This document shows, in pieces, positions 4,761-51,931 of a stretch of 64,000 nt of DNA. The notes below the pieces were generated by a model that was not told where the DNA came from, searched no databases, and worked only from the letters and a program-made list of their open reading frames with translations. The DNA is from Candidatus Parcubacteria bacterium (GTDB taxonomy: Bacteria; Patescibacteriota; Minisyncoccia; Sungbacterales; SURF-37). The position numbers and the translations under genes are program-made. The stretch is taken from assembly GCA_003599755.1 (NCBI GenBank), contig QZJO01000009.1, positions 150,362 to 214,361 on the forward strand, written 5' to 3'. Position 1 is the first letter of the stretch, and the number at the start of each line of letters is the position of its first letter.

Positions 4761-4916
4761 ACCCGGTAGTAGAATTTCAAATATAATGACGTTTTCCCTT
4801 GCTATCCCTCTTGAATCTTTTCGAGATTACCTGGCATGCAAAATGGCCAGTCGGCCCAATTGAAATTTCACTACCGGGCATACATAAAACCTATACTGTT
4901 TACTACCAGAATGGAA

Positions 4917-4945
4917 CGGGGCGGGTTGCAGAGAACCCGCCCCGG
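4917..4945 (-). terminator. Candidate intrinsic terminator after GT-B gene (11-bp stem CGGGGCGGGTT/AACCCGCCCCG)
   Basis: Perfect inverted repeat 3 nt downstream of the stop at 4948, followed on the minus strand by UUCCAUUCU; lies in an AT-richer 187-nt gap that also has a TATATT element upstream of the NeuA-like start. Confidence 0.45.
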
Positions 4946-4947
4946 TG

Positions 4948-21959: not shown

Positions 21960-23310
21960 GCGTGCGTATGCCGATATGCTCGAGAAGCGCGTCGGCCACG
22001 CGCTCGGATGCCTTTCCATCTGGGTCGCTGCCGTATTGTTCGCGGATGATACGCCGCCGGCCCTCGCGGTCGAGCGTCGGATCGGCCAGATACCGCCGAA
22101 TCCAGGCACGAAACTCGTCGGCGGTATCGGCGCGCGCAACACCCCCGCTTTCCAAAATAGCGCGGAAATGAATATACCCGTACGGCCGTACGCCTTCAAA
22201 GCCGGTCTTGGGCGTGCGGTGGAAATTGGCGATGATCGTCGGTTTGTCGAACAAAGCCGCCTCAATAGCGATCGTTGAGGGGCCCGTCACCACGAGATTC
22301 GCATGCCAGATGCCATTGACCAGCATCGCGTCGTCTTCGGGTGTAAGATCCCGATCGCCCACCCGGTTCGGGTCATAGGTAACGCCGGGGCGGTCAAAAT
22401 ACATATGCGGCGGCGGGACAAACCCCTCAAGGCCGCTTACGCGGTCTGCGGGCGGAAACCGCACGATGACATTCGCATCGAGCTCGGCCAGAATATCCAT
22501 CGCATAGCGGTCGACATCATTTTCGCGAATATAAAGGTCTCCTATGGGTGCGAAAAAAATCAGCGGCTTTGCGGGATCGGCGTTGATGCGCCTGAAAAAT
22601 TCTTCGCGCGGAATTTTCAGCCCTTTCAGATACTGATCATAGTGCGGAATACCGACCACGCGAATGCGCTCGGCCGGCATGCCGTCCAGTTCGATCGCCT
22701 CGCGCCGCAATCGCTCGCTCCATACGAGCAGCTCATCGGGAAAGATGCGCAATAAGCTATGGATGGTAAGGTTGTCCCAGGATCGCACCATGCCGATCGT
22801 CGGAATGCCGCGGCGCCGGGCATCATGCATGAGCGCGATATCGTTTTCGTTCAATATGTCCGTGGCAAACACTAAATCCGGGCGCATCCGATCGAGCAGA
22901 TCCCCGAACAGTTCGCGGGGCCCGAGCACGCGATCAAGCCACCGAACGATTCGCGGCGCGGCCTTGGTCCGGCCGATCGCTTGCGAACCGTAATAGAGCG
23001 CTCGATACCACCACGGCTTGCCCAGGTACATGAGGTATTCTTCACGAATCCGAATGCTTTCGGTCGCAAGCATCAAACGCGCAAGACGCTTGCAGAACAG
23101 TCCGCGGCGCGTGCGCGTCGGCCTGCTTGCGACAACGCCGACGATTTCGACATCCTGCCGGGCGAACCGATCCGTAAAGTAGGATACTTTATAATCCGGC
23201 ACAACGACGACGATCCGATGTCCTGCCGCGAGCAGGCGCGGAATGATATCGGTCGCGATGATGTTTCGGGAAATGAGGAGGTGGAAGCTCGTTATGAAGA
23301 TCGTTTTCAT
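21952..23310 (-). CDS. TagF/TagB-family (Glyphos_transf)-like protein, paralog 3
   Basis: VVGIPHYDQY, IFFAPIGD, TIAIEAALFDKPTIIANF; start MKTIFITSF chosen (ATGA overlap). Confidence 0.55.
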   Translation of the reverse strand: MKTIFITSFHLLISRNIIATDIIPRLLAAGHRIVVVVPDYKVSYFTDRFARQDVEIVGVVASRPTRTRRGLFCKRLARLMLATESIRIREEYLMYLGKPWWYRALYYGSQAIGRTKAAPRIVRWLDRVLGPRELFGDLLDRMRPDLVFATDILNENDIALMHDARRRGIPTIGMVRSWDNLTIHSLLRIFPDELLVWSERLRREAIELDGMPAERIRVVGIPHYDQYLKGLKIPREEFFRRINADPAKPLIFFAPIGDLYIRENDVDRYAMDILAELDANVIVRFPPADRVSGLEGFVPPPHMYFDRPGVTYDPNRVGDRDLTPEDDAMLVNGIWHANLVVTGPSTIAIEAALFDKPTIIANFHRTPKTGFEGVRPYGYIHFRAILESGGVARADTADEFRAWIRRYLADPTLDREGRRRIIREQYGSDPDGKASERVADALLEHIGIRTHA

Positions 23311-24683
23311 TCGTTCTTGTTCATGACGGCTAGGCGGCTTCGCGCGCCAAGAATCTTCGCGAGCCGCGCGCTCGCGCCCCCGTCCAGCCGCCAGGCCTCT
23401 TGGGTTACGATGCGTGCCCTGCCGGCGCGATCGAGCTCCGGATCGCTGCAATACCGTCCAATCCATTTCCGAAGCTCTTCAGGGCTTTCAGCAAAGCGGA
23501 TGCCGCCGGCGGCGCGCAATGAAGCAAAATGATCGTAATCGTAGTAACGCCGAATGCTCTCATAGTAGGGACGGTTCGGGGTCGGGTCAAAGGCGATCGC
23601 TATCGCCGGCGTATCGTAGACCGCGGCGTCGATGAGAATCGTTGAGGGGCCGCCAACCACGACTTCCGCAAATGCGAGCGAATCGCGCAGCACCTCATCG
23701 TCCTCCAGCGTCAATTCGTTGTGCTTGAATCCTTTGCCCGTCCCCAGCTGCCGCCCGGGCCGGTGCACGAGCGCGGCGGGCGGCAGATCGGCCGCGATGC
23801 GCATGCTATCGCTCGGCGGAAGCCGCACCACGATCCGCCATCCCGCAGGCAGCGCATCCGCCAACAGCCGGATGACGAATCCGTCCAGATCGTTTTGGCC
23901 CAAATACCGATCCCCGGTCGGCGCGTAGAGCACGAACCGCTCGTCCGGCCGAAGGCCGAGACGCGCGGCGAAATCAGCGCGCGCATGCGGCGGCGCGCCG
24001 CCGTACCGGTCATAATGCGGGATGCCGATGACCTGAAGCGCCCCGCGCGGAATGCCATGGTACCGCGCCGCTTCTTCCGCGACGAGCTCGTTATTGACGA
24101 CAAGCGTGTCCGGAATCGTACGGACGAGACCTTTCGCCGTCAGATTGTCCCAGGAACGCACCATACCGATCGTCGGCACGCCCGCATCGCGCGCCGCCTC
24201 GATAAGACGTGCATCGGCATCCTGTTGGACATCGGTTGCGAACACCGCATCCGGCCGATACGCGCGCACAATAGCGCCGAATGGCTCGCGCGGCGCGAGC
24301 CAGCGGCTTACCTGCCGGATCAACGCCTGCGCCCAGCGCCGGTTACCGATCAGACGGACGAGCAGCGCGCCGCGGCCGCCCAATTCGGTCTTGCGCTTAA
24401 TCGCCAGCGAATGGGTATCCGTCGCCGCGAGCGCGAGATAGCGCAGCGCGGCCTCAAACCGCGTTGATGCGAACGCGACCGGATGGATAATAAGGCCGGG
24501 TCGCAAAAATTCCGAAAGAAAAAACAATTGCTTCTCTACAGGAACCAGCAGAACGACGCGCGTCGCGCCATCGGCAAGCAACGCATCCAGAAGCGGCGAC
24601 GATATGATGTTACGAGAAATAAGGACGTGAAAACTCGTCATGAGTATCGTCCTCGGTCGAACGGTCGGTGGTTGGCTAGTCAT
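23307..24683 (-). CDS. TagF/TagB-family (Glyphos_transf)-like protein, paralog 4
   Basis: VIGIPHYDRY, FVLYAPTGDRY, TILIDAAVYDTPAIAIAF. Confidence 0.55.
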   Translation of the reverse strand: MTSQPPTVRPRTILMTSFHVLISRNIISSPLLDALLADGATRVVLLVPVEKQLFFLSEFLRPGLIIHPVAFASTRFEAALRYLALAATDTHSLAIKRKTELGGRGALLVRLIGNRRWAQALIRQVSRWLAPREPFGAIVRAYRPDAVFATDVQQDADARLIEAARDAGVPTIGMVRSWDNLTAKGLVRTIPDTLVVNNELVAEEAARYHGIPRGALQVIGIPHYDRYGGAPPHARADFAARLGLRPDERFVLYAPTGDRYLGQNDLDGFVIRLLADALPAGWRIVVRLPPSDSMRIAADLPPAALVHRPGRQLGTGKGFKHNELTLEDDEVLRDSLAFAEVVVGGPSTILIDAAVYDTPAIAIAFDPTPNRPYYESIRRYYDYDHFASLRAAGGIRFAESPEELRKWIGRYCSDPELDRAGRARIVTQEAWRLDGGASARLAKILGARSRLAVMNKNE

Positions 24684-24781
24684 GGGAAACGAGCGGAATG
24701 CGGATCCGCTCATTTATAATACGGCTTCCCTGCCTGCCCTGTTTCCTCCCCGTGCCTGTCGCGCTCGGAACTCTTTGTACG

Positions 24782-33735: not shown

Positions 33736-35139
33736 TCATGGCTGCGGGATACGCGGATTTGCCGGTCGACGAATCCACCAGCGCGGCTTCAATACCGAGG
33801 CGACAACGGCGCGGAAAAGATCGCGATCCTCCCGCGATACGGTAAAAAAATCACGGAATCGAACGGTCAATTCGGGATACCGGCGCCGAAGATAATACGT
33901 GTAAAGTCCCACGCGGCCACCATAATCCACGAGAAAGGTCAGCGCCATTGCATAGAGTTTTAAGAGGGGTAGAAGCGTGAATGCGATGACGGCATTAATC
34001 GCGATCTCCGACAAAAACCGCTTAGCCAGAAGCTCCTGCTCGCGCAGCGTTACCAGAAACGACTTCTGATATTTGTATACGGCGTAAAGCGGCAACGTGG
34101 TCAATAGCAGGAGAACCAGTGGCAGCGCCGGTTCATACTTGGGCATGGCGAAGTATATGATTGGCGGCGCGACCAGAGCCGCGCCGAGCGCCACTGCCGT
34201 GCCCACCCAGACGCCGTACTTTAGCATGCGCCGATAAATTATTGCCAAACGTCCGCGATCACCCGCTTCCCACGGCAGAAGAACACCGAGCATCGCCGTC
34301 GGCACGAAACCCTGGAAAATCGTCAAGAGATTGACCGCGAATGCATAGAGGCCGACCGCCTCCGTGTTCAGGAACACCCGCACATACCAAACATCGATCC
34401 CCTTTGCCGCCCGGGACACGGCATAGCGCGTAAGAACCCAGACGCCATACCGCCGAATCAATCCGGGCAAAATCCAGCCGGCGGAGGGCGCAATGCCGGT
34501 AAAGAGTTCGCGCCAGCGGCGGAAAAAATAAAATGACGTATATGCAAGCGTGACGCCTGAAGCAATGGCGCCCGCCCACAAAACCTCGCCCAGTGTCAAC
34601 CCGCCTTGCCACCATAATGCAACAAGAAGGCCCAGCCGCGTCGTCTCGGCGATGATCTCGGCGCCGAATGCCGCAAAAGAAACTGTTGCGCGAAAGAAAA
34701 GCACCTGCATCGTACGCAGTGCCGGGAACAGGACAAGAAAGCTTGCGATGCGAACGGAGCCGCCGATGTCCTGATCATAGTATCGGGCGATGAGTTCCGC
34801 GCCGAAAAACACAAGCGCCCATACCGCAAACGCGATAATCGTTTTGGCGCCGATATACTCTGCCGCAAGCCGCTTCGCGTCCTTCCGCTTACCCTCGGCA
34901 GTGGCGCGCGCAAGGTCGTTCGTGACCGCCTCATCAAACAAGCCGCTGGTAAGGTGCACGGCAACCGCAACGGCGGTAAGAATAAGCTGGTAGAGGCCGT
35001 AGAGATATACCGATACTGTCGCGAGAATAAAAAAAGAGCTCGCGATGCCGAGGCCACGGAGAATCAGATGAATAATTTGCCCGCGCGATTCGCCCCAGAG
35101 GAGCGTTTCGCGAAACGAATACGTTGGAGCTCGTGCCAT
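33736..35139 (-). CDS. Polysaccharide biosynthesis protein / Wzx-like flippase (MOP superfamily)
   Basis: ~12-14 predicted TM segments, 467 aa, no soluble domain; location within the glycan locus. Confidence 0.55.
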   Translation of the reverse strand: MARAPTYSFRETLLWGESRGQIIHLILRGLGIASSFFILATVSVYLYGLYQLILTAVAVAVHLTSGLFDEAVTNDLARATAEGKRKDAKRLAAEYIGAKTIIAFAVWALVFFGAELIARYYDQDIGGSVRIASFLVLFPALRTMQVLFFRATVSFAAFGAEIIAETTRLGLLVALWWQGGLTLGEVLWAGAIASGVTLAYTSFYFFRRWRELFTGIAPSAGWILPGLIRRYGVWVLTRYAVSRAAKGIDVWYVRVFLNTEAVGLYAFAVNLLTIFQGFVPTAMLGVLLPWEAGDRGRLAIIYRRMLKYGVWVGTAVALGAALVAPPIIYFAMPKYEPALPLVLLLLTTLPLYAVYKYQKSFLVTLREQELLAKRFLSEIAINAVIAFTLLPLLKLYAMALTFLVDYGGRVGLYTYYLRRRYPELTVRFRDFFTVSREDRDLFRAVVASVLKPRWWIRRPANPRIPQP

Positions 35140-35180: not shown

Positions 35181-37649
35181 TCAAAGCGCATAAATATCCA
35201 CGATCGAGCCGAACCGTTCCATGCGCCAGAGCTCGCGGATCGGCACGCCCGCGATCTCGCCGGAGAGTTCAATCGCCTGATCAAATTCCGCTCCGGCAGG
35301 ATACGGCGAAAACCGCTGAACGAGCTTCAACTCGCTAATAAGCGATCGGGTCTCCGGCTCAAGATCGGATTGATCTCGATAATTGTACTCCACAACCAAG
35401 TAACGATACCCGCGCTCGCGGAAAAATGCGGCATCCCGCGCATCGCGCTCCGGCTTTCCGCGCGCGATGAAATGAAGATTCAGGAATTCGTATGCCGGGC
35501 TCGGATACGCGTCGGACGAATGGCGCAGCAGCGCACGATCCGCGGCGCGCACGCCGGCCGCATCGGCGGCTTCAAGCGCACGGATACCGTCGGGCGTATT
35601 GATAAGCCGCAGGTACGGCGTGTCACCCACGATCTTTTCGCCCGCGGAGATATATTCTGCAATCCAATCCCGCGCCATAAGGCGGGTTTCCGTGCGGATC
35701 GCGAGCATATCGTATCGAAGCGCAAGAACCAGCGGAAAACCGAATACCGCGAGGAGTGACATCGCGGTTATACCGCGCCGCATGACGAAAACGCGCGTGC
35801 TTACAAGCTGCAGCAGGGCATCCAAGCCCGCGCCCGCAAGGATAGCGAGAACCGGTACGATGAACACCAGTGCGCGGGGAATCGCATTGAAAAACGCATA
35901 AAGAAACGAAATATAGGCAACAGCTACGACAACCGCCGGTATGACAAACGACGCTTTGCGCCGCCAAAGTATCGCTGCGCCGACAACCGCGGCCGCAAGC
36001 AACGGCAACTCATACCGCAGGAGAAGTCCGGCATATCCGCCCAAGAATGCGAGCCATTCCCCCATGCCTTTTCCCGCCAGAATGCCGAAGCGACGGCCGA
36101 GATCCCCGCCTACGGTTTCGCCTCCTTCGCCGCGCGTGAATCCATAGGGATACAAAAGAATCGTCATGCCGACCATGAGCACGGCGATACCGACCATCGC
36201 GAGCGGTCGTACGGAACGGATCCTTGTTCGCCAAGATTCGCATCCGAACAGATAATGCGCGAAAAGTCCGGGTATAAGCGCGATTGCGGCTGACGTATTG
36301 ACCGCGGTTGCAAGACCCGCGAATACGCCGGTAAGTATGTACGGACGCCATCGATCGCTCGTGCCGATACCGAAACTCGCGTACCACGCGAGATACAAGA
36401 GAAGCGCAGCCGGCATCCAATGGCGCACCACATGGGATAGCTGAATATGATAGAACGAGAGAGCGAGAAATGCGGCGGCAAACCATCCGGCACGCCGAGA
36501 CCCGGAAACGGCCTGAGTCATGCGCGCGACCAACGCAATCAATATGATGCTGAGTCCAAGGTTCGCAAGCCGGCCCGCCCACCAGAGAAACGTCGGATCG
36601 AGCGCCAGCATATCGCGCCATGCCGCAAGCTGCGGGAATCCGGCCAAAACGAAATGAACTGCCAGCGCGGGCGCGATAACCAGCAAATAAAAATAGGAAA
36701 GCAACGGCGGATAGTTCAGCACCGCGCGGAATGATTCTGCATGCAGCGCCGGAATCAGCGTGCGCTCTTCGAGCATTTTCAGCGCGCCGTAGATAAACGC
36801 CGGTTCATCATTCACCAAAAACAACGGGAAGCCGTATCCGATCGCCGGCAGCCGCAGCAAAACCGCGACCAATAAAATCCAGGGCAGTGGACTTTTCCAG
36901 CGCGCCGGAGCCAAAAACCACCGGGCCAACGACGCGTTCGATCCTTCGGGCAACAGCCGTATCCGCCACGGCTCCACGAGTCCCTCGGAGATGATGCTCC
37001 GTGAAATTTTGGACGTGCCGAGGCGCCGCTCGGTGAACGTTATGGGAACTTCCGCCATGCGCGCGCCGCGCCGCCAAAACATCATGCGCAACGTAAACCA
37101 CCATGCGTATCCGTTGGCGCGAACGTCGGCAAACGGTACGCGGCGCAAGAACTCCGTGCGCATGCAGGAAAATCCGGAGGTGCAATCCGCAAGCGGCAGG
37201 CCGGTGATCGTACGCACGTACCAGTTGCCGCCCCATGATAGCAAGCGCCGCCCAATGCTCCAGTTCTCGATCCGACCGCCGCGCACGTAGCGCGAACCCA
37301 CCACGAGATCAGCTCCTTCAGCCGCGCGGATCAGCGCCGGAATGTAGCGCGGATTATGGGAGAAATCCGCGTCAATCGTTATCACGAATTCGTCGGTACC
37401 GTCGGCAAGCACGCGCGCGAGCGCGTCCTGATACGCGGCGCGAAATCCCCGCGGACCCGAGCGCGTCATGAGCGCAACGCGCGGCTCCTTGGCGGCAAAC
37501 TCCCGCACGAGCTCGGCCGTGCCGTCGGGTGATTGATCGTCCACGACTAAAATCCGCGTGCCGTTTGGTGCGGCCGCCAACAGTTCTGCGATCAGCGAGA
37601 GGATATTCTCGCGCTCGTTGTACGTCGGGATAATGATGCGCGTCGCCAT
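35181..37649 (-). CDS. Fusion protein: N-terminal Dpm1-like GT2 polyprenyl-phosphate sugar synthase + C-terminal ArnT/PMT-like GT-C membrane glycosyltransferase
   Basis: N-term IIIPTYNEREN, VVDDQSPDGT, ITIDADFSHNP; C-term polytopic domain with first-loop motif FLVNDEPAFIYGALKMLE (ArnT/PMT 'DE' motif). Confidence 0.7.
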   Translation of the reverse strand: MATRIIIPTYNERENILSLIAELLAAAPNGTRILVVDDQSPDGTAELVREFAAKEPRVALMTRSGPRGFRAAYQDALARVLADGTDEFVITIDADFSHNPRYIPALIRAAEGADLVVGSRYVRGGRIENWSIGRRLLSWGGNWYVRTITGLPLADCTSGFSCMRTEFLRRVPFADVRANGYAWWFTLRMMFWRRGARMAEVPITFTERRLGTSKISRSIISEGLVEPWRIRLLPEGSNASLARWFLAPARWKSPLPWILLVAVLLRLPAIGYGFPLFLVNDEPAFIYGALKMLEERTLIPALHAESFRAVLNYPPLLSYFYLLVIAPALAVHFVLAGFPQLAAWRDMLALDPTFLWWAGRLANLGLSIILIALVARMTQAVSGSRRAGWFAAAFLALSFYHIQLSHVVRHWMPAALLLYLAWYASFGIGTSDRWRPYILTGVFAGLATAVNTSAAIALIPGLFAHYLFGCESWRTRIRSVRPLAMVGIAVLMVGMTILLYPYGFTRGEGGETVGGDLGRRFGILAGKGMGEWLAFLGGYAGLLLRYELPLLAAAVVGAAILWRRKASFVIPAVVVAVAYISFLYAFFNAIPRALVFIVPVLAILAGAGLDALLQLVSTRVFVMRRGITAMSLLAVFGFPLVLALRYDMLAIRTETRLMARDWIAEYISAGEKIVGDTPYLRLINTPDGIRALEAADAAGVRAADRALLRHSSDAYPSPAYEFLNLHFIARGKPERDARDAAFFRERGYRYLVVEYNYRDQSDLEPETRSLISELKLVQRFSPYPAGAEFDQAIELSGEIAGVPIRELWRMERFGSIVDIYAL

Positions 37650-37658: not shown

Positions 37659-38768
37659 TTACTTCGTAAACAGGGCAATAAATTGATCGCGCACGATTAC
37701 TCGATCATATCGGCGCACCCAGGCCGCTTCGATCTCGCCGATGGCCCGCCGCTCGTTCGCCGAGCGCTCCAAAAGATCGATCAGGGCCTCAGCGATGCGC
37801 TCGCTGTTCCCGCTCGGCGCAAGGTATGGCGTGAGCGCAGGCGGGGTGATTTCGCGCACGCCGCCGACATCGGTCGCGACATAGGGCGTACGGGCAGCCA
37901 TCGCTTCCAGCAGTACGTGGGGAAATCCCTCCTCTTCAGACGGCATCAAGAATGCATCCGCGGCTCCGAAATATGCGGCAATATCCCGCTGCGGCACGCT
38001 GCCGAGCAGCCGTGCGCCGGATGCAATGCCGCGCCGCTCCATATCCGCTCGGATTGCTTCCCGCTCCGGACCGTCGCCTGCAATCAATACCATAGCACGA
38101 GGCATGCGGGCCAGTATCCGCGCGGCGATATCGGGCAAAAGATCCGCGCCTTTGCGGCGCGACAAGCGGTGCGCGAAGAACACCACGGGGGCATTGGCCG
38201 CGATGCCGAAATTTTGGCGGATATCGCTGTCCCGCGCCGCGGCGCCAAAGAGATCGACGTCGATCCCATTGGGCAACACGCGGATGCGATCCGGCCGCAA
38301 TCCGTATATGCGCGCATAGGTCACGGCAAGACCCGGCGTGCCGGTCACGAGGATCGCATGGCGCAATACGAATCGAAATGCCGCTTCGGCGAATCGGTTT
38401 CGGCGATACAGCCACGGCATGCCGCAATTCCAATAATACGCTCGGCCGCCGGTGCAGCCGAATACGAGCCACGCGGCAAGTCCGCCGTAGATCGAATAAT
38501 GAACGTATGCATGCCGCACCCCGCTGATGCGCGCCGCAAGAAGCAGAACGAAGAGTTCGAGGAGCCGAAGCGGACCGAACGCGAAGCGCTGCGCGCGGAT
38601 GCGGTATGCGGCCTCGGGAATCGCGCCCCGCGCCCGCTCGGCAATGACCAGAAGATCAAGCGCCGATGCGGCATCGCCGAGTAATGCGTAGATATATGAA
38701 AAATGGCTGCCCGTGGCAGCGTCGTATTCCGGCAGTATGAAGACCGCCCGCGGCCGGTAAGAAGTCAT
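37659..38768 (-). CDS. Glycosyltransferase family 4 (GT-B)
   Basis: EEGFPHVLLEAMAARTPYV E-x7-E motif. Confidence 0.8.
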   Translation of the reverse strand: MTSYRPRAVFILPEYDAATGSHFSYIYALLGDAASALDLLVIAERARGAIPEAAYRIRAQRFAFGPLRLLELFVLLLAARISGVRHAYVHYSIYGGLAAWLVFGCTGGRAYYWNCGMPWLYRRNRFAEAAFRFVLRHAILVTGTPGLAVTYARIYGLRPDRIRVLPNGIDVDLFGAAARDSDIRQNFGIAANAPVVFFAHRLSRRKGADLLPDIAARILARMPRAMVLIAGDGPEREAIRADMERRGIASGARLLGSVPQRDIAAYFGAADAFLMPSEEEGFPHVLLEAMAARTPYVATDVGGVREITPPALTPYLAPSGNSERIAEALIDLLERSANERRAIGEIEAAWVRRYDRVIVRDQFIALFTK

Positions 38769-38771: not shown

Positions 38772-39455
38772 TCAGCGATTGAGTTCTTCGCGCATGCGCG
38801 CGAGGCGGAGCTCAGTCCCCAGATCCTCCCACCGGCCGCGGTGCTCGAACGCGCGAAGTTTTCCTTCCGCGGCAAGTACGGGAAACAAATGCTGTTCAAG
38901 CATGGAAAATCCCTGCGGTAGACGGTCGCGATGCTCGGGCTCCAATACATACAGCCCCGCATTGATATGCCCAGCCGTCGGTTCGCTCGGCTTTTCCCGA
39001 AACTCCTTGATCAAGCCGTCCTCGATGTGCAAAAGACCAAAGTCGCGCGCATCATCCCGCCAATGAGCGGCCATGAGCGCGTGGCCGGGCACATGCGAGC
39101 GCGCGAGCGCGAGAAAATCGAAATCCGCGATCGTGTCGCCGTTGAGCACCGCGAACGGTTCTCGAAAATCCGCGGCCGCAAACCGGACCGCGCCGCCGGT
39201 TCCCAATGCCTCGGGCTCTATCATCCAATCGCACGCGAGACCGCGATCGGTCACGAAGCGAATGATCTGATCCGCACGAAAACCGAGCGCGAGCCGCACG
39301 CGGGTGAATCCGGCGTCCGCGAGCGCCCGGAGCTGCCGCTCCAAGATCGCCTGCCCCCCGATTTCGACAAGCGCCTTCGGAATATCGCGCGCGGAATTCG
39401 GCAGCCGCGTGCCGCGGCCGCCCGAAAGTATCAATGCCGGGAAGGATTGCTGCAT
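38772..39455 (-). CDS. Sugar-1-phosphate nucleotidylyltransferase (NTP_transferase family)
   Basis: ALILSGGRGTRL pyrophosphorylase motif, GTGGAV. Confidence 0.75.
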   Translation of the reverse strand: MQQSFPALILSGGRGTRLPNSARDIPKALVEIGGQAILERQLRALADAGFTRVRLALGFRADQIIRFVTDRGLACDWMIEPEALGTGGAVRFAAADFREPFAVLNGDTIADFDFLALARSHVPGHALMAAHWRDDARDFGLLHIEDGLIKEFREKPSEPTAGHINAGLYVLEPEHRDRLPQGFSMLEQHLFPVLAAEGKLRAFEHRGRWEDLGTELRLARMREELNR

Positions 39456-40412: not shown

Positions 40413-42131
40413 TCAGAGGCGTACGCGATACAGTTTGAATTCGCCAATTTGGGCCGCCGGTTCCAAAAACGGAAATTGTTCGAACGGCAGCTCAGGATCG
40501 CGGACAACATCCCATACGATATAATCGACGCGGTACCGCCTCAGCGCCTCGCGGAATCCCATCGCGCGCAATTCAGCCGCGCCGAGAAGCGTTGTCACAA
40601 TGTATTCATCCGCCGCCGGCAGCGGACGCGGCTCGAATCCCAGTAACCGACGCAGCCGATTGCCTTGCGCGATATGCGCCCGCAGGTCAATGCCGTAAAC
40701 GCCGACCAGCGCCCGCTCGTGCGCCGCCACGAACGCCGCATCAAACGGATCCGCAAAAAAATTCTGGATGATGAACCGGTCGGCAAGCTCCGCATCGGAC
40801 ACAAAAAAGAGCCGCGCCAGCTGATCGAAGTATACGTTCGCATGTGTCGCTATGGGAATCAAACCGGAAAGATCCCCGGACGCGTATACGACCGCATCCC
40901 GGGGAACCTCCCGATCGATCCAGCGGAACAATGGTTCATAGCGCACCCAGGCCGCGCGCCGAGCTTTCGGCGGTTCGAATAATTCGGGAATATCGCGCAC
41001 GGCCGGCGCAGCCAACACGATCGCGGCACCCAACGCTCCGGCGGCCACCCACCGGCGCTGCATCGGCAAGCGCGCCATGATCCGTCCCGCGAGAAATGCA
41101 GCTGTCGCGACGAACCATAGTCCGGCGGGCAATAGATAATGGCTTGAGAACTCTAGATTTTTACCCGTGATGAGATGCTGATTAACACTAATCACTATTG
41201 CCGCGATACCGCTGATAAGAACCAACGCCTCAGGCCTTGTCGTCGACCGCTTCCGCAACCATATCCCTGCGAGTACGGCGAACAAAAGCACCGCAGGAAT
41301 AACGATGGCGATACCCGAGGGGAATCGCGTCTCGATCATGCCGATGCGGTGCAGCGTTTCTGCGTATTCAGGCAATCGGATTGCCTGAATGAAAAACCAA
41401 AGATACGGCAGCGCTACCAGCAGTGCACCCCCGAACACCATCGAAAACTGCCGCGCTTGCTCGCGCTTATTCGAGAGCCAAAATACGGCCGCCAAGAGCG
41501 CCGTGCAGATAAACGCGAACACCGCATAATACGTATAGAGATACGGAAGCAAGCCAATGCTTGCCGCGGCAATAGCGAGGGCGCCGCGCCGCGCCGGCAG
41601 CGCTTGCGCTATAGCCAGAAGCGCTATGATCGCCGCGAGCAAGACCGGTATATGTAATTGCGGACTTACGCTACGGCCGAATTCGTGAGGGAACATTCCA
41701 ACAAAAAAAATCAGCGCCGCAGCAATAGCGATCGCGCGGCTCCATGCCAGACGCAGAAACAAAAGATATGCGGCAAGCACTGCAAGCGCGGGCAACACGA
41801 AATCAAGGATAATACTTTGCGCGATGACGTACGGGCCGATCACGAACAGTGGAAGCGCGATCAGGAATTCGCCCAGGAATATGGGCGCGGGCGGTTTCGA
41901 TTTATGTTCGGCCAGATACGGATTCCCGATGGTGACATGGCCGTCTACAACTTCTCGGATGCGCGCGAAATATAATGCTTCGTCATCGGCTCGCATATGC
42001 GCCGGACTATTCAACGGAATATCGTACCGAAGCCAATGCCAAAGCGGCGTAGTGACGAGCATGGCGCTCACGAAAAATGCCAAACCAAATGCCGCCCCAT
42101 GGCGTTGCAATGTCGATATCAATCCGGTCAT
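40413..42131 (-). CDS. ArnT/PMT-like GT-C family membrane glycosyltransferase (putative)
   Basis: Polytopic N-terminal domain with first-loop RADDEALYFARIREV (DE motif) plus ~180-aa C-terminal soluble domain. Confidence 0.5.
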   Translation of the reverse strand: MTGLISTLQRHGAAFGLAFFVSAMLVTTPLWHWLRYDIPLNSPAHMRADDEALYFARIREVVDGHVTIGNPYLAEHKSKPPAPIFLGEFLIALPLFVIGPYVIAQSIILDFVLPALAVLAAYLLFLRLAWSRAIAIAAALIFFVGMFPHEFGRSVSPQLHIPVLLAAIIALLAIAQALPARRGALAIAAASIGLLPYLYTYYAVFAFICTALLAAVFWLSNKREQARQFSMVFGGALLVALPYLWFFIQAIRLPEYAETLHRIGMIETRFPSGIAIVIPAVLLFAVLAGIWLRKRSTTRPEALVLISGIAAIVISVNQHLITGKNLEFSSHYLLPAGLWFVATAAFLAGRIMARLPMQRRWVAAGALGAAIVLAAPAVRDIPELFEPPKARRAAWVRYEPLFRWIDREVPRDAVVYASGDLSGLIPIATHANVYFDQLARLFFVSDAELADRFIIQNFFADPFDAAFVAAHERALVGVYGIDLRAHIAQGNRLRRLLGFEPRPLPAADEYIVTTLLGAAELRAMGFREALRRYRVDYIVWDVVRDPELPFEQFPFLEPAAQIGEFKLYRVRL

Positions 42132-44545: not shown

Positions 44546-46864
44546 TCATGCCTGGACCCGATCAATATTATCGAGCCAGCGCCGAGCAACCTCCGGCCAG
44601 CCGGATTTCCCGGGAAACGCGGCGATGCGCGCCGAAAGTTCCGCGCGATGCCGCGGACTCGCCACTGCCGCGATGCCTGCCGCAATCATTGCTTCATCGA
44701 GCGGGTCGACAAGCACTGCCAAATCCCCGATCCATTCGGCAAATCCGGTCTCGCGCGTGAGCAATACGGGCGTGCCGGCCGCGATACATTCCAAAACGAG
44801 ATTCGGGCTTACGTCGGACAGCGACGGCAGCGCCACGGCCGCTACCGCCGCGATGCGCGCGGCCAATTCTTGCCGCCCGAGGGACGGCAGCACGCGGATG
44901 CGATCCTCGGCCCCGGCCGCGCGGATGGCAATATTAAGCGCGTGGCGCTCCGGTCCCTCGCCGATGAGCTCCAGCCGCATCGAACGCGGAGCTTTTTTCG
45001 CAAACACGCGCACCAAACGGCTGAGATTCTTCACGCGCACGAAACGGCCCGCAAACAACAGTACCGGCTCGCGCGCTTCCGCTCCGGTACCGCCGGCGGG
45101 AACCGGCGGCGAAATAATCGCGATGCGTGCGGGCGCGATGCCATAACCGGCAGCAAGGGTTTTCTGGCGCCATGCGGATGAGCAGACGAACTGCCGCGCT
45201 TGGGTAAAGGTCCGACGCGTCATGCGCCGGATCAAACGCTCTTTGCGCGTAAATTCAAACACGGTGATGTGCTCTGAAAATTTCGGCAGCGTAAGATCGG
45301 TACCCGTTCGCTCGATGTACGACTCCCATAGCCGATCCCCTTCGATGCGCAGAATCAATGGCCGCCGCCAGAGTCGCGCGGCTGCGGCGACCGGTACGCC
45401 AACCCCAACCGGATCAAGCGCGATCACCGCATCAGCAAGCCGCAGATGCCAAAGCGCCTTCAGAAAATACATGCCCTGACGCAGACCGGGCGGCAGGCGC
45501 ATGGATACCGTACGGAGATGAAATCCTTCGGAGTACGGTATTGCGCCCTGCGGCCGATAACTTAGTACCGTCACCCAGCGGCCGGCGGCAGCCATTTCTT
45601 GAGCCAAACGCCATGCATAGGTCGCGGGGCCGCCGAGTGCGGGCGGCACAAACGGCGTTGCCAAAAGCACGCGCGCTGCCGCGCGCTGTTTGACCAGCGG
45701 CACGAATGCAGTCCTGAATGATTCGGCGATCGCGTCCCATTGATAGAATTTCTTCACCGTCTCACGACCCGCCGCACCCAGCCGCTGGCGCAAAAGACCG
45801 TCGCCCAACAGCCGCGATAATTTCGCCGCCAGATCCTGATAATCATCTACCTTAGCGGCAATACCGTTTTCGCCGTCACGCAAAAAATCTGTAATACCGC
45901 CTACTGCGGTCGCCACCACGGGCACGCCTGCAGCCATAGCTTCCAAGAACGATACGCCAAGTCCTTCGGAACGCGACGGCCGACAATAGATATCCGCAAT
46001 CGCCAGATACCGCGGAATATCCGCATTAGGAACCGAGCCGACAAACTGTACGCGTTCCGCCACACCCAGCGTTCGCGCCAATGTCACGAGGCGCTCTCGC
46101 TCGTGGCCATCGCCGACGATGACGAGCGCCGATGGTGATGCGCCACTCTCGCGATGCATCCTGGCGAACGCACGGATCAAAACATCAATCGCGTTTTTCT
46201 CGACCAGGCGCGACGTGGTGACAATGACGCGGGCATCGGAGGCGATGCCGAGGCGCTTCTTCAGCGCTTCGCGATCCTCGACCGACATGGGATTCTGAAA
46301 TACTGAAAAATCGATACCGTTGGGTATGACGCGCACGCGGCCGCGATAGCCGAATTGGCGAGAGAAATCGCCGAGGTATGAGCTGATCGCCTGCACTTCG
46401 TCGGCGCGGCGCAGTGCGAACCGCCATGCAAATCCAGTCATGCCGAACCGACCATGGCGGATATGCGCTTCCGAGTCGCCCTCCTGCAACGTCTGAAAAA
46501 CCGGTATGTGATCCCAAAACCGCAGCGTATTAATAAAATATGGAATAAGCCCGGACCAATTCACCATCACCGGCCAGAAGAACGCGGGCTTCGTGCGCCG
46601 CATCATACCGAGCACCTTGATCGTCCCCCAAAACGGCAAGAGGAACTTATCGTAGCGGGTGCCTAGGCCGACCCGCACGATCACGCCCTCTTCCCGAAAC
46701 TGCATGGGCGCAAGATCGCGGTTCATGCGCGCGGTAATAATAAAAAAGCGGTACTCCGAAGCGAGCCGCCGCGCGACATGTTCGATTGCGATCTCCGCCC
46801 CGCCGATATACGGATGGTATGCGGTGGTAAAGACCAAGACCGCGGGCTTTTCGGTAGCCATCAT
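44546..46864 (-). CDS. Tandem two-domain GT4 glycosyltransferase (bifunctional, 772 aa)
   Basis: Two complete GT4 units: residues ~1-380 (SEGLGVSFLEAMAAGVPVV) and ~390-772 (VLLATPFVPPALGGPATYAW...). Confidence 0.7.
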   Translation of the reverse strand: MMATEKPAVLVFTTAYHPYIGGAEIAIEHVARRLASEYRFFIITARMNRDLAPMQFREEGVIVRVGLGTRYDKFLLPFWGTIKVLGMMRRTKPAFFWPVMVNWSGLIPYFINTLRFWDHIPVFQTLQEGDSEAHIRHGRFGMTGFAWRFALRRADEVQAISSYLGDFSRQFGYRGRVRVIPNGIDFSVFQNPMSVEDREALKKRLGIASDARVIVTTSRLVEKNAIDVLIRAFARMHRESGASPSALVIVGDGHERERLVTLARTLGVAERVQFVGSVPNADIPRYLAIADIYCRPSRSEGLGVSFLEAMAAGVPVVATAVGGITDFLRDGENGIAAKVDDYQDLAAKLSRLLGDGLLRQRLGAAGRETVKKFYQWDAIAESFRTAFVPLVKQRAAARVLLATPFVPPALGGPATYAWRLAQEMAAAGRWVTVLSYRPQGAIPYSEGFHLRTVSMRLPPGLRQGMYFLKALWHLRLADAVIALDPVGVGVPVAAAARLWRRPLILRIEGDRLWESYIERTGTDLTLPKFSEHITVFEFTRKERLIRRMTRRTFTQARQFVCSSAWRQKTLAAGYGIAPARIAIISPPVPAGGTGAEAREPVLLFAGRFVRVKNLSRLVRVFAKKAPRSMRLELIGEGPERHALNIAIRAAGAEDRIRVLPSLGRQELAARIAAVAAVALPSLSDVSPNLVLECIAAGTPVLLTRETGFAEWIGDLAVLVDPLDEAMIAAGIAAVASPRHRAELSARIAAFPGKSGWPEVARRWLDNIDRVQA

Positions 46865-46877: not shown

Positions 46878-48425
46878 TCAGCCGAATTTCCGCTTCAAGG
46901 CGATCACGCCGATCGCCAGAAGGGCGCTTGCGCCAGCACTGATCCCGAAAAATAACCACGTGCGCGATTGGCTTGGCAATGCGGCGGATAGCGCCGCGGT
47001 CTCGCCTGATGCCGGGACCGACGGCGGCTCAGATTCCCGGGCCAGTATCACCGGCGGTTCCACAGGCGGAGGCGCGGACGTCCGAAGAGCTGCCGCCGGA
47101 CGCGGCATCGGCGCCGGTGCGGCAGCAACGTTCACTGCAACCGCCGGTTTAGCCGGTGCGACAAGGCCGGGCGTGGCAACGCGCTCCACGACAAATGCAT
47201 CGCCATTGCGCACCCAGCTGCCGCTGCCTGGAGAACCGACCAGTGCCGCCGCATCCAGAATCATGCCGCGCGCATCGGCGAGCGTGATCGCGGGCGCCGG
47301 CTTGAGCCACGTGGCGCTGTTCGGAAACGCGATCACGCCCCCTGCCGCAATCAATGTATTGGCCGGAATCGCAAAATTCGTTCCCGCATCATCAGTCAAG
47401 CGAATGCCGGCAAGATCGATGCGCGCGTCGCCGGCGTTGAAAATTTCGACGAACCCATCGTTGCCGGGCTTCACTTCGCTGATGATGAGTTTGGGCGGAT
47501 ATACGATAATCATCCGCCAGTCCGCGCCTGCAAGTTCGCCCGATGATACAGAAAGGTGCGCGTGATACGTTCCCGGGAAATAATAAATATGCGTCAGGGC
47601 TTTGCCTTCTTTGACCCAGCCGTCGCCGAAATTCCAGAGGAATCGGGCGTTCGGGATGAGCTCCTTGTTCAGGCCGTACGCAAGTCCGCGAAATTCAACC
47701 ACCGCGCCGGCAATCACCGTTGTATCGTCCCCCGCGTCGGCGCCGAGTCCCTGCGGCGGCGCGACGGCGATATCCCCGCCCCCTGCGGTCGATTGGTCGG
47801 TATCCGCGCCGCCGGACGACGTAGGCGGCGGATTCGAACCCGGATCGGCCATGCCGGGCGAAGTCATAATGCGCCAAGCGCTTGCCGACCCACGCACGCC
47901 ATCGGCAGCCAATCCGATCGAATCGCCTTCGGCGAGCGAACCAGTATCCACGAACGTTCCCGCGGTCCAGAGGCCGGCTTCGGCCGCGGCCGATTCCCAG
48001 GTCTTTCGCTCGCTCGCGCCGGGCTTTTGGTAGCGGACAAAATCCTCGATCGTATCTGCGGAGCGGCCACCGGGCCGGAACAATGCCACTGAGCCGGACG
48101 AGTTGCCCATGTTTGTCGTCGGCGACGCATGATAATGATTCGCCGCATCGCCGGTTCCGGATGCGCGTAGATGAATCGTCAAAAATGAATGACCCGCAAG
48201 GGATGTCCCTGCGGGAAACGCATAATACCCGATGCCGTCCGGATACAGTTCCCAGCCGCTCAAATCCGCGGGGTTCGATCCGGCATTATAGAGCTCGATC
48301 CTCTCAAGACCCGTGTCCGCGCCGGCCGGATCAAACAGAATCTCATTGATAACCACTGCAGCCCCAGCACCGGCAGGGACGGCTGCGATGATCAAAACCG
48401 CCAATATACCGGGAAAGATACGCAT
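46878..48425 (-). CDS. Secreted/cell-surface protein with two lamin-tail domains, a PKD-like domain, Pro-rich linker and C-terminal TM anchor
   Basis: Signal peptide MRIFPGILAVLIIAAVPAGAGA; LTD motifs VINEILFDPAGADTGLERIELYNAG and IISEVKPGNDGFVEIFNAG; PKD-like WNFGDGW; C-terminal WLFFGISAGASALLAIGVIALKRKFG. Confidence 0.7.
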   Translation of the reverse strand: MRIFPGILAVLIIAAVPAGAGAAVVINEILFDPAGADTGLERIELYNAGSNPADLSGWELYPDGIGYYAFPAGTSLAGHSFLTIHLRASGTGDAANHYHASPTTNMGNSSGSVALFRPGGRSADTIEDFVRYQKPGASERKTWESAAAEAGLWTAGTFVDTGSLAEGDSIGLAADGVRGSASAWRIMTSPGMADPGSNPPPTSSGGADTDQSTAGGGDIAVAPPQGLGADAGDDTTVIAGAVVEFRGLAYGLNKELIPNARFLWNFGDGWVKEGKALTHIYYFPGTYHAHLSVSSGELAGADWRMIIVYPPKLIISEVKPGNDGFVEIFNAGDARIDLAGIRLTDDAGTNFAIPANTLIAAGGVIAFPNSATWLKPAPAITLADARGMILDAAALVGSPGSGSWVRNGDAFVVERVATPGLVAPAKPAVAVNVAAAPAPMPRPAAALRTSAPPPVEPPVILARESEPPSVPASGETAALSAALPSQSRTWLFFGISAGASALLAIGVIALKRKFG

Positions 48426-48476
48426 GGCCGTTCTCTCTACCGTACTGCTCGGACCAGCGCCCGCCAAGAAATAGTT

Positions 48477-48506
48477 GTCCCCGCCTACTCTCGGGCAGGC
48501 GGGGAC
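48477..48506 (-). terminator. Candidate intrinsic terminator after ORF 48511-48936
   Basis: Perfect 10-bp stem GTCCCCGCCT/AGGCGGGGAC followed on the minus strand by AACUAUUUCUU. Confidence 0.45.
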
Positions 48507-48510
48507 GAGC

Positions 48511-48936
48511 TCAGCGCTTCGGGTAGAGCTCAGCGCGGTCGATGGCGTCCACCTGATCAGCCAAGGCGATGAGAATCCGGACCACCGAGCGGAATTTATC
48601 CAGGAACGCGGGCTTGAACGTGGCAAGTACCGCTGCCTCGAGTGAGAGAAGCCACTCCGAGAGATGCTCGATGGATCTGAACACTCCATTCACACTGAGG
48701 CAGAGCTCATCACCTTCCGCTCGTATCTCGAACCGTGCCGAAAGCTCGCAAACTTGCGAACCCCCGATGCGCCGCACGTCGTCGATGAAAACCCAGCCGG
48801 TAAATATTCCGTGGGTATGCATGAACGGCCCGAAGGTCTTTCCCGCAGTTACCATGGAACTCTCCTTTCGCCAGCAGGCCTCCAACTTCCCTATCACGGC
48901 ATCCGACTCCCCGCAAGGGAAAACTTCGCGTACCAT
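48511..48936 (-). CDS. Hypothetical protein (141-aa ORF; possibly shorter from internal Met)
   Basis: ORF with protein-like composition between locus end and GT-C gene; no motif recognised. Confidence 0.35.
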   Translation of the reverse strand: MVREVFPCGESDAVIGKLEACWRKESSMVTAGKTFGPFMHTHGIFTGWVFIDDVRRIGGSQVCELSARFEIRAEGDELCLSVNGVFRSIEHLSEWLLSLEAAVLATFKPAFLDKFRSVVRILIALADQVDAIDRAELYPKR

Positions 48937-48944: not shown

Positions 48945-50681
48945 ATGCCCCACAGCACTGTCGCCCGCATTCTGTTTTTGATCATTCTGGCTCTTGCGGC
49001 AATTTTGCGTTTGGCGAATCTCCACCAGGGCGATCCGTTGAACGATGAAGTCGCTTACGCGTTTCGCGCGGTGGCGCTGATCGATTCATACGCTGCCGAA
49101 GAAACGCCGCTTGAGAAGCTCGACCCGAACCGGCCGAGCTGGCTTTCGTTTTCCTTCCATGACCACCCGCCGCTCGTGTTCTGGGTTCAGCATGCTGCGA
49201 TAACGCTCTTCGGCGAAACGCTCTGGGCCGCCCGTCTGCCGTCGGCGTTGCTCGGCATTATTTCGGTATGGCTTATATTCCTCATCGGCCGGCGCATCGC
49301 GACTCGCCCCGCTCCGGCTCCGGCGAAGCGGGCCGAACGATCAGGCCTGATTGCCGCGGCGCTGCTTGCGGCTACGATTCACCACGTATATATATCGCGC
49401 ACCGCGCAGCAGGAGGCATACGTCATCTTCTTTTTGCTCTTGGGCATATGGTTTGCACTCAAATCCCGAGAACAGCCCCGTTACCTCATCGCGCTCGGCG
49501 TAACGGCCGGACTGGGATTTCTCGCCAAATACACCACGCTCGTACTGTTTCCCATCGCTGCCGTCCTATTGACTCCCGTGCTGCGCGAACATCTCCGCCG
49601 CCGCGAGTTCTGGATAGGCGCCGCAGCCGCCGTTCTCGTCGCAAGCCCGGTCCTGATCTACAATTTCCAGCTCTGGCGTACCCTCGGCCATTTTGATCTC
49701 CAGTTCGCGTACCTTTTCGGCAATGCCCCCGAATCGTGGCAGCAAAGCCCCGGCAAGGACATCGGCTCGCTGGGCCATCGGATTGCCGTATTTCTGCCGC
49801 GCCTTGGCCAGACCAACTCATGGTTATTTCTCTCGTTCGCCGTCGCCGCGATCGCGGGATTCGCGGCGGGGTTGACACGCGCTCCTCGAGACACGTTTCG
49901 GCGCTTCGGCGTCATCGCGGCCTCGCTTGTAGCCGTCACGCTGCTTCTTTTGGCCATCGGTCCCTCCATCCGGTTCCTCGCCCTCCTTACGCCGTTTCTT
50001 GCGCTCGCGATCGGCATATTCCTCGATCGCGCGCTGACGCGGCTGCCGCAGCGCTTCGCAGCCGCAGGGATAGCCGCCGTCGTTTTTTTTGCCGCATTTG
50101 AGGCAGCATACAGCTGGAACAACGAAATCGCGGCCGTGCCGGTCGGTTCAAGACCGTGGTTTATCTCTCCCTTGCAATATGAAACCCCGCGTCTCGGCTA
50201 TACGGAACTGGAAGCATGGTTTGCGCATGAATTCGCCAATACATATCCGGTCATAACATTCGAAACGACGTTTGCGTTTACTCAAGAACTCCAAGAGCGC
50301 TCCATACGCCGCATGCGCCAGGCCGGCGCCTCGTCCCGGGCGGCGCTCATCGTGACGTACGGCGATTTTACCCCGCATGCCGAACTCTGGACGTTCGAGC
50401 GGCGGAGGATGCATCAGGGCTGGCCGATCCTTTCGCTTGCCGACTACCAGGCCGCGATTGCCGAGCAGGGACCCGAATTTTTCGCCGCGGCCGGATTTAC
50501 GGAACTCCATATCGTCATCTCCGCGACCATGGTGATTCCCGATGCGCTCAAAATGCTCATTGCAACGCCGGGAACCGAAGAGACCGCCATTCAAAATCCG
50601 GCCGGCAAAACCGCATTCCGGATATTCACCATCCCGCTTACCCAAGCTTTTCGGCCGATCGCATCGCCGGTACAATGGTAA
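48945..50681 (+). CDS. ArnT/PMT-family GT-C glycosyltransferase (dolichyl/undecaprenyl-phosphate-sugar dependent)
   Basis: Polytopic; first-loop LNDEVAYAFRAVALIDS DE motif typical of ArnT/PMT_2; 578 aa. Confidence 0.75.
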   Translation: MPHSTVARILFLIILALAAILRLANLHQGDPLNDEVAYAFRAVALIDSYAAEETPLEKLDPNRPSWLSFSFHDHPPLVFWVQHAAITLFGETLWAARLPSALLGIISVWLIFLIGRRIATRPAPAPAKRAERSGLIAAALLAATIHHVYISRTAQQEAYVIFFLLLGIWFALKSREQPRYLIALGVTAGLGFLAKYTTLVLFPIAAVLLTPVLREHLRRREFWIGAAAAVLVASPVLIYNFQLWRTLGHFDLQFAYLFGNAPESWQQSPGKDIGSLGHRIAVFLPRLGQTNSWLFLSFAVAAIAGFAAGLTRAPRDTFRRFGVIAASLVAVTLLLLAIGPSIRFLALLTPFLALAIGIFLDRALTRLPQRFAAAGIAAVVFFAAFEAAYSWNNEIAAVPVGSRPWFISPLQYETPRLGYTELEAWFAHEFANTYPVITFETTFAFTQELQERSIRRMRQAGASSRAALIVTYGDFTPHAELWTFERRRMHQGWPILSLADYQAAIAEQGPEFFAAAGFTELHIVISATMVIPDALKMLIATPGTEETAIQNPAGKTAFRIFTIPLTQAFRPIASPVQW

Positions 50682-51931
50682 TTATGAACACCTCCAAGCT
50701 TGGACTCATCGGCGCCCTCGTAATCGCCGGCACCCTAATGGCACACTCAGCCGCAGCTGCCACACGGGAAGAAATGATTGCGTCATTGCAGGCGCAAATC
50801 GACGCGCTGCTAGCGCAACTGGCTATGCTCCAGCCCTCGGCGCCACCATCAGTTGTACTACCGTTTACGGAAACCTTGCACCTTGGCTCCCGAGGTCAGG
50901 AAGTGCAAACTCTGCAAAAATTTCTCCGGGACTTTTCGCTCAACCAACCGCACATCTATCCCGAAGGGCTCGTAACTGGGTATTTCGGCCCGTTGACCGA
51001 GGCGGCCGTCAAGCGGTTCCAGATACACTACGGCATCGAGGCCGTAGGCATCGTAGGCCCCAAAACGCGCGCAAAATTGAATGTGCTAGTTCCGCCCAAG
51101 CCGCCAGCGCTCGTCCCTACGCCGGTGACCCCGCCTCCACCCGCTCCTGCCCCAACGCCAGCGCCGGCCCCCGCGCCAACGCCCGCTCCGGCGCCTACGC
51201 CGACCCCTCCGCCTCCGCCTGCATATATTCCCACCCCTTTCCAGCTTGGATTGCCTACGATCAGTGCATTCAAATGGGGATCAACATCGCTGAATCTCAC
51301 GTTCGCGCATGATCCGGGAAATTATACCCGCTCCTACGCGATATACCTGAAAAAATCCGGGGAAACCGCGTTTACCAAATTCGGACCCTACGCGATGCCG
51401 AACATCGGCGAAAGCACGACCGCGGCCGACGGCACATCCCTGCGGCGCATTGCCGTAAACGTTTGGGAATGGAAGCAGCCGGTGGACTACGCGACCCAGG
51501 CCGATGGTGATTACACGGCGTATCTGACGGCCGTCGGCGATGGCGGCGTGGAAAGCCAGGCAACGCCGATGTGGGGCGCGGTTCTCTATTCGGCAATTGA
51601 ATTTGACGAATTCCACCACGACGCGCCGATCCAAGCGGTCATCAACAACGTATTTTCCGATTTCCCGCTCCGCATGCGCATCGCCAATTCCCAAAGCGAT
51701 CTCTATTATAAATACTGGATCTACGACGGCGATACGCTCATCTGGGACAGCGCGTATACCAACCAGGCCGCAAGCTCCAAGATCGAAGTAAGTTTCCAGA
51801 ATCTCGACGGGTACCCGTTTGAGAACGGCAAATCCTATCGCATACGCGCCGAGTCGTTCGACAACAATGTCGGCAACGACTCGCAGATCAGGCAAAAACC
51901 TGCGGAACGGACTCTCACGTACGTCCCGTAG
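50675..51931 (+). CDS. Secreted peptidoglycan-binding (PG_binding_1) domain protein with Pro/Ala/Thr linker and C-terminal beta-rich domain
   Basis: Signal peptide, coiled-coil IASLQAQIDALLAQLAMLQ, PG_binding_1 (LHLGSRGQEVQTLQKFL...GYFGPLTEAAVKRFQ), PAPAPTPAPAPAPTPAPAPTPTPPPPP linker. Confidence 0.75.
   Translation: MVIMNTSKLGLIGALVIAGTLMAHSAAAATREEMIASLQAQIDALLAQLAMLQPSAPPSVVLPFTETLHLGSRGQEVQTLQKFLRDFSLNQPHIYPEGLVTGYFGPLTEAAVKRFQIHYGIEAVGIVGPKTRAKLNVLVPPKPPALVPTPVTPPPPAPAPTPAPAPAPTPAPAPTPTPPPPPAYIPTPFQLGLPTISAFKWGSTSLNLTFAHDPGNYTRSYAIYLKKSGETAFTKFGPYAMPNIGESTTAADGTSLRRIAVNVWEWKQPVDYATQADGDYTAYLTAVGDGGVESQATPMWGAVLYSAIEFDEFHHDAPIQAVINNVFSDFPLRMRIANSQSDLYYKYWIYDGDTLIWDSAYTNQAASSKIEVSFQNLDGYPFENGKSYRIRAESFDNNVGNDSQIRQKPAERTLTYVP

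Follow-up and report, generated by a model that had tools for sequence, protein, structure and literature searches.

Three-component systems of extracytoplasmic glycosylation begin with a cytoplasmic glycosyltransferase of family 2 (GT2), which makes a polyprenyl-phosphate monosaccharide; this is flipped across the membrane, and a glycosyltransferase of the GT-C fold transfers the sugar on the outside (PMC11127046, PMC7389260). A Dpm1-type synthase can also be joined to a membrane domain. In Ppm1 of Mycobacterium tuberculosis (Rv2051c) the domains D1 and D2 are fused, whereas in M. smegmatis they are split into the interacting proteins Ppm2 and Ppm1 (PMC3485146). In this study, we analysed a stretch of 64,000 nucleotides from Candidatus Parcubacteria bacterium (contig QZJO01000009.1, positions 150,362 to 214,361; hereafter the window) and describe a protein encoded at 35181-37649 on its minus strand, in which a GT2 domain of the synthase type is followed by a GT-C. 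We consider it likely that this is a genuine recent fusion of two neighbouring extracytoplasmic-glycosylation genes, of which the GT2 half would make a lipid-linked sugar and the GT-C half would spend it.

The gene is one open reading frame (ORF) that starts with ATG and is not interrupted by a stop codon. Its product is identical to the public entry P0001, 'glycosyltransferase [Candidatus Parcubacteria bacterium]', which lies on a 263,839-bp contig. Its parts, in window positions, are:

35181..37649, minus strand: whole fused ORF, 822 amino acids plus stop codon (ORF call; identical public protein P0001)
36954..37649, minus strand: GT2 domain (GT-A fold), polyprenyl-phosphate hexose synthase-like, amino acids 1-232, without a transmembrane (TM) helix of its own
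37365..37373, minus strand: DXD metal/nucleotide-sugar motif of the GT2 domain, D93-A-D95, conserved in 21/21 aligned GT2 homologues
36894..36953, minus strand: linker, amino acids 233-252, LLPEGSNASLARWFLAPARWK (alignment with split relatives; no stops; low predicted local distance difference test score, pLDDT)
35697..36893, minus strand: GT-C transmembrane module, amino acids 253-651, with >10 hydrophobic helices (model and hydropathy profile)
36768..36818, minus strand: first extracytoplasmic loop motif LVNDEPAFIYGALKMLE, amino acids 278-294, with the putative catalytic pair D281-E282
35184..35696, minus strand: C-terminal soluble alpha/beta domain, amino acids 652-822 (~170 amino acids), predicted to be extracytoplasmic

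With Ppm1 the locus shares an anchor-less Dpm1-type synthase domain that, depending on the lineage, is fused to a polytopic membrane domain or encoded next to it. However, the partner in Ppm1 is Lnt-like (CN-hydrolase), lies N-terminal to the GT2 and does not consume its product, whereas the partner in the window is a GT-C, lies C-terminal and is probably the consumer. The systems GtrB/GtrA/GtrC, CsbB/GtcA/YfhO and ArnC/ArnEF/ArnT follow the same logic, and the fold of the window GT2 matches ArnC and GtrB. In contrast to these systems, two of the three components are merged here in one polypeptide, the GT-C is of a different, PMT_2-like subfamily, and a GtrA-family gene was not found in the window with a hidden Markov model (HMM) of limited sensitivity. 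GtrB and ArnC have TM helices, which the window GT2 lacks, and the dolichyl-phosphate mannose synthase of Pyrococcus furiosus (PfDPMS, PDB 5mlz) bears four of its own. Moreover, producer and consumer are separate proteins in the case of PfDPMS, as they are for eukaryotic DPM1 and the PMT/ALG mannosyltransferases.

The N-terminal half is a GT2 of the type that synthesises polyprenyl-phosphate sugars, and it has the GT-A fold, the acidic motifs and a means of membrane association as this class does. Enzymes of the class reach the membrane either through TM helices of their own or, in the case of human DPM1 and M. smegmatis Ppm1, through a membrane partner. Pfam Glycos_transf_2 covers amino acids 5-169 (93.5 bits), sequence matches link the half to PfDPMS (E 4.8e-30) and to ArnC (E ~1e-12), and Foldseek ranks PfDPMS above ArnC and ArnC above GtrB. 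Actinobacterial Lnt-Ppm1 fusion proteins have a catalytic domain that is 44-48% identical to this half. All four aspartates of D37-D38 and D93-A-D95 are kept in the 21 aligned homologues. Hydropathy gave no hydrophobic segment in amino acids 1-257, the anchor being supplied by the fused GT-C; the GT2 proteins of split relatives, which end in ...EPWRIRFSKS, are likewise without a TM helix. The predicted activity of the domain is transfer of a sugar from its nucleoside diphosphate (NDP) form to polyprenyl phosphate. The NCBIfam equivalogs do not allow the sugar to be assigned, since every match lies far under its cut-off; mannose is our best guess, based on the similarity to Ppm1 and DPMS and on the fold matches of the GT-C half to ALG12 and Pmt4.

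The C-terminal half is a polytopic GT-C of a distinct PMT_2-like subfamily, neither GT39 nor GT83 proper. Its best fold match is ALG12, and among 32 members of its family 22 match Pfam PMT_2 and 18 match PMT (E <= 0.01). D281 and E282, about 5-15 residues past TM1, are conserved in 30/30 orthologues (invariant as D37/E38 of alignment A3), and P0248 and P0183, which are distant fusions, have kept the pair as DEP; the topology suggests that this loop faces outward. GT39 PMTs have MIR domains. The window GT-C differs from the PMT and ALG enzymes in having no Pfam MIR domain among its matches at E <= 0.01 and no sequence match to any solved GT-C. An assignment to the GT39 PMTs (PMT1/2/4) was rejected, as MIR domains are absent and the extracytoplasmic domain is C-terminal (amino acids 652-822) rather than an internal loop. 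Likewise, ArnT (GT83) was rejected, its fold match being weaker than that of ALG12, AglB or Pmt4 and a sequence match being absent. No hydrophobic segment follows amino acid 651 by hydropathy, and the secondary structure of the C-terminal domain (E672-676 ... E816-821) is modelled with pLDDT >90; this domain possibly binds the acceptor.

An AlphaFold2 model of the fused protein, built on a 53-sequence alignment, reached a mean pLDDT of 92.2 and a predicted template modelling score (pTM) of 0.83. Values of pLDDT <50 are confined to residues 239-247, within the linker. The first-pass annotation of this DNA had read the N-terminal half as a polyprenyl-phosphate sugar synthase and the C-terminal half as a polytopic GT-C with a PMT-type acidic DE motif in the first loop. 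Both assignments stand, the former on the matches to PfDPMS and ArnC and on the conserved aspartates, the latter on matches to GT-C profiles and folds. That the two form a single polypeptide was confirmed as well: the protein is read in one frame, and a hidden stop, which was looked for, occurs in no frame of the linker. It was also correct that domain order and partner are unlike those of mycobacterial Ppm1.

The closest relatives of the GT-C half are stand-alone proteins of 565-638 amino acids. When orthologues were clustered at 90% identity, 27 of the 29 clusters were stand-alone; the window protein is the only GT2-bearing one, and P0007 carries a methyltransferase. All nine loci with an orthologous GT-C (9/9) have a 235-amino-acid GT2 directly upstream of a separate GT-C of ~580 amino acids, in the same order. 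The GT2 proteins of these split loci are 67-70% identical to amino acids 1-232 of the window protein and their GT-C proteins 38-51% identical to amino acids 253-822. The recovered loci span several lineages, including metagenome-assembled genomes (MAGs) of Candidatus Sungbacteria and two MAGs labelled Saccharibacteria. L001, L004, L005 and L006 show the complete gene series GT4 - GT2 - GT-C - Wzx-like - GT4, as does the window. Since all examined orthologous loci are split and adjacent, the window gene would have arisen recently and in its own lineage, by fusion of two genes that were ancestrally adjacent. The pairing itself is older than the fusion: in distant family members whose GT-C stands alone, TM-less Dpm1-like GT2 genes (30-37% identity) lie within ~0.15-3 kb of it.

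The junction between the two genes varies among the relatives. It is an AT-rich spacer of 115 nt in L001 and of 177 nt in L004, an overlap of ~28 nt with differing frames in L005 (a Sungbacteria relative), and a ~510-nt spacer holding a small extra ORF in L087 and L089. This ORF (MTEIQ..KPYDL.ERTF.FA...; L087 ~4760-5150, L089 ~4765-5130), from the MAGs labelled Saccharibacteria, is missing from the other relatives and from the window.

The GT2-GT-C architecture recurs in public data and arose more than once. A profile search with the GT-C among 1.84 billion representatives gave 16,599 relatives at E <= 1e-3, and among the best 150 of these P0183 (803 amino acids) and P0248 (779 amino acids) are GT2-GT-C fusions. 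Over their entire length both can be aligned with the window protein (27-28% identity), and the YG(F/L)P...DEP loop is part of the alignment. Three independent sample assemblies encode P0183 identically, and NCBI contributes one more member to its cluster. The three proteins share the whole architecture; the window copy, however, arose separately, from a pair still split in its closest relatives, and GT2 fusions within the GT-C family apparently go back to three independent events. Outside the family, N-terminal GT2 domains are found on unrelated PMT_2-type GT-Cs (P0017, P0019, P0032, P0045, P0104) and on TMEM260-like GT-Cs (P0025, P0095), and P0113 and P0120 are GT2-GtrA-PMT_2 triple fusions; the GT-C halves of all these have no detectable similarity to that of the window. 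The rarity of the architecture that the first-pass annotation had implied is thus not borne out. In the open-access literature we found no paper describing GT2-GT-C fusions.

Other domains are also found at the N-terminus of the same GT-C family, namely methyltransferases (P0139, P0142 and P0007, the last at L167 367-3141), a GT4 (P0157) and HAD phosphatases (P0224, P0243). This end of the GT-C seems to serve quite generally for the docking of cytoplasmic enzymes that modify glycans. At the P0183 locus (L168 9559-11016 and 13700-14170) there are genes for an MBOAT acyltransferase, for another PMT_2 protein and for a separate GtrA-family protein; in contrast to the window, the P0183 lineage thereby has a recognisable flippase candidate (GtrA) close by.

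In the window, the fused ORF belongs to a same-strand gene run, with gaps of 9 nt to the upstream GT4 gene and of 41 nt to the downstream Wzx-like gene. The genes that bear on its function are:

33736..35139, minus strand: Wzx-like flippase gene of the MOP family, directly downstream (Pfam Polysacc_synt, 49 bits)
37659..38768, minus strand: GT4 glycosyltransferase gene, directly upstream (Pfam; synteny with L004; a GT4 of the same size lies farther upstream in L001)
38772..39455, minus strand: sugar-1-phosphate nucleotidylyltransferase gene (Pfam NTP_transferase)
48945..50681, plus strand: second, stand-alone GT-C gene (PMT_2 95 bits; PMT 36 bits)

The Wzx-like gene occupies the same position in L001, L002, L004, L005 and L006. 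The second GT-C gene, 11 kb away from the fusion, is read in the opposite direction and is followed by a PG_binding_1 protein (50675-51931); it could draw on the same lipid-linked sugar. The nucleotidylyltransferase is a possible supplier of the NDP-sugar donor. The ~20 kb around the fusion form a glycan cluster, with several GT4s, a DegT-type aminotransferase, a 4,6-dehydratase-like protein, an NDP-sugar dehydrogenase, TylF-like and other methyltransferases, the sugar-1-phosphate nucleotidylyltransferase and a weak TagF-like match.

We propose the following course of events. Like Dpm1, Ppm1, GtrB and ArnC, the cytoplasmic GT2 domain (amino acids 1-232) would use an NDP-sugar to load a hexose onto polyprenyl phosphate, while the flexible linker of ~20 amino acids would tie this anchor-less domain to TM1 of the GT-C. 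A flippase would then carry the lipid-linked sugar across the membrane. The GT-C, with its D281-E282 loop and C-terminal domain outside, would pass the sugar to an extracytoplasmic acceptor, which may be a surface protein or a cell-wall glycopolymer, possibly the product of the surrounding GT4/Wzx-like cluster. That the product of the GT2 is the donor used by the GT-C we infer from the conserved adjacency and the recurrent fusion of the two. The fusion would introduce no new reaction; it would give the anchor-less synthase an anchor, fix a 1:1 stoichiometry and co-localise producer and consumer, and would so turn the adjacent-gene partnership of the relatives into a covalent one. The first-pass annotation had gone further and proposed that the donor is channelled within the protein, a claim we do not uphold: with the GT2 site in the cytoplasm and the DE loop, which follows TM1, on the far side of the membrane, flipping of the lipid-linked sugar is needed in any case. 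Direct channelling would be impossible, because the active sites are predicted to lie on opposite faces of the membrane.

Several observations weigh against a genuine fusion of a producer with its consumer. The window fusion is known from a single assembly (one cluster member, one contig), an exact-sequence look-up of P0001 in a gene-position index found no second copy, and no relative close enough to reveal the mutational path was found. The PMT_2 match at amino acids 357-493 is marginal (28.2-29 bits against a cut-off of 26.1 bits), and the GT-C family profile matched no solved structure among the PDB sequences even at E <= 10; because of this the subfamily assignment of the GT-C half rests on fold and motif. 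For the nucleotidylyltransferase, the best NCBIfam match is to mannose-1-phosphate guanylyltransferase, at 111 bits against a cut-off of 440 bits. Finally, the Wzx-like gene is the sole flippase-type gene seen in the window, and the flipping step is otherwise without a candidate.

One may accept the fusion as real and still doubt that the GT-C consumes what the GT2 makes. The GT-C might, in the manner of Ppm2 or DPM3, mainly anchor the synthase in the membrane, or it might be a ligase or oligosaccharyltransferase that moves a Wzx-flipped polyprenyl-diphosphate glycan en bloc. The Wzx-like gene adjoins the fusion, oligosaccharyltransferases are among the fold matches, the second GT-C at 48945-50681 could take the lipid-linked sugar instead, and the family often bears unrelated N-terminal domains. 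However, D281-E282 and many other GT-C residues are invariant in the family, which argues for a catalytic GT-C rather than a mere anchor. The repeated pairing with an anchor-less Dpm1-type GT2 in distant members and the three apparently independent GT2 fusions fit a producer and its consumer best, and both ALG12, the top fold match, and Pmt4 are users of dolichyl phosphate mannose (Dol-P-Man). A GT-C that is not the consumer is, on this evidence, unlikely.

It could also be argued that the organism in fact has two genes, like its relatives, and that a sequencing, assembly or consensus error has joined them by deleting a stop codon or by a frameshift at the junction. The orthologous loci are split in nine of nine cases, the fused form is present on one contig only, and in L005, where the genes overlap by ~28 nt and their frames differ, one indel could be enough to fuse them. 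Scans of metagenomes and of GTDB with the full protein gave neither a closer relative nor a second copy of the window junction; the GT2 pattern TYNERENI dominated the matches, and only L087-L089 were informative.

The junction itself speaks for a fusion. Stand-alone GT2 proteins end in ...EPWRIRFSK(S/L)-stop, whereas the window protein runs ...EPWRIR-LLPEGSNASLARWFLAPARWK-SPLPWILL..., rejoining the N-terminal tail and TM1 of the orthologues, so that linker residues 233-252 stand in place of the stop codon, intergenic spacer and start codon of the relatives. All three frames are free of stop codons between EPWRIR and LVNDE. A simple miscall of a stop codon was rejected for this reason, and undoing a single indel would give the GT2 a ~50-amino-acid extension overlapping the GT-C start, not a normal GT2 end. 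In being GC-rich the linker resembles the coding sequence on either side of it, whereas the spacers of L001 and L004 are AT-rich. Moreover, all catalytic residues are intact in both halves, the same architecture is confirmed for P0183 in its independent assemblies, and an in-frame junction free of stops is improbable a priori as the outcome of an error. We regard an artefact as quite improbable and continue with a genuine fusion.

A bolder proposal is that the protein is a self-sufficient machine which makes, flips and transfers, the GT-C membrane module or the domain interface itself moving the polyprenyl-phosphate sugar to the outer site. The idea arises because a GtrA-type flippase was not detected nearby and because the synthase is tethered onto TM1 of the GT-C. 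With an HMM of limited sensitivity, built from 14 GtrA sequences, the best match among the six-frame ORFs of the window was no better than E = 2.3, and none at the loci of four split relatives was better than E ~0.2. To our knowledge, the flipping of Dol-P-Man-type lipids is an unsolved question, and if the proposal were true the family would be a tractable bacterial model for it; we give it only a very small probability. Similarly improbable is that translation starting at an internal TTG (codon 242) yields the GT-C as an additional or even the main product, so that two proteins are still made: this is a reading of the sequence in which the linker has GAAGGA and, 12 nt on, the in-frame TTG, giving a product M-ARWFLAPARWKSPLPW of a length near the N-termini of the orthologues, but ribosome-binding sites usually lie closer than 12 nt to the start codon, and the GT2, having no terminating stop, would be made as part of the full-length protein anyway.

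Further genes of the glycan cluster deserve mention. In a 772-amino-acid ORF (44546-46864, minus strand) a complete GT4 module (Glyco_transf_4 + Glycos_transf_1) occurs twice in tandem, which makes it a second fusion in the operon-like run. A 572-amino-acid ORF (40413-42131, minus strand) has no Pfam or NCBIfam matches, and genes without matches are present also in L004 (573 amino acids) and in L005 and L006 (521 amino acids); the window ORF may encode a polymerase or ligase of the glycan pathway that sits in the membrane and has escaped recognition. There was no NCBIfam match at equivalog level for this 572-amino-acid neighbour, for the Wzx-like gene or for the nucleotide-sugar enzymes. Beside the cluster lies a gene for a 603-amino-acid protein (46878-48689, minus strand). 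It contains a PKD domain as well as two Lamin Tail Domains, is a candidate for a surface protein and might be an acceptor of glycosylation. TagF-like CDP-glycerol glycerophosphotransferase genes are weakly recognisable in the window (23307-24713, minus strand) and clear in L004 (12073-13398) and L005 (10317-11675), which hints at a teichoic-acid-like polymer in these Patescibacteria.

What is new here is that two components of a known three-component scheme are fused; neither the reaction nor the fold is new. Comparable uncharacterised fusions are already present in public databases, and we see the protein as a modest variation on a known glycosylation system. It adds a second, mechanistically different case to Ppm1 D1-D2, as the membrane partner is probably the consumer, and as a single-chain construct it lends itself to structural and biochemical work on donor synthesis that is coupled to extracytoplasmic transfer. 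As a 'Rosetta stone', the fusion argues that the anchor-less Dpm1-like synthase and the PMT_2-like GT-C family work as a pair, probably a physical one. The GT-C family is widespread in Patescibacteria, with ~16,600 representative clusters (E <= 1e-3), and this pairing provides a testable function for many of their genes that are annotated as 'hypothetical' or with the generic term 'glycosyltransferase'.

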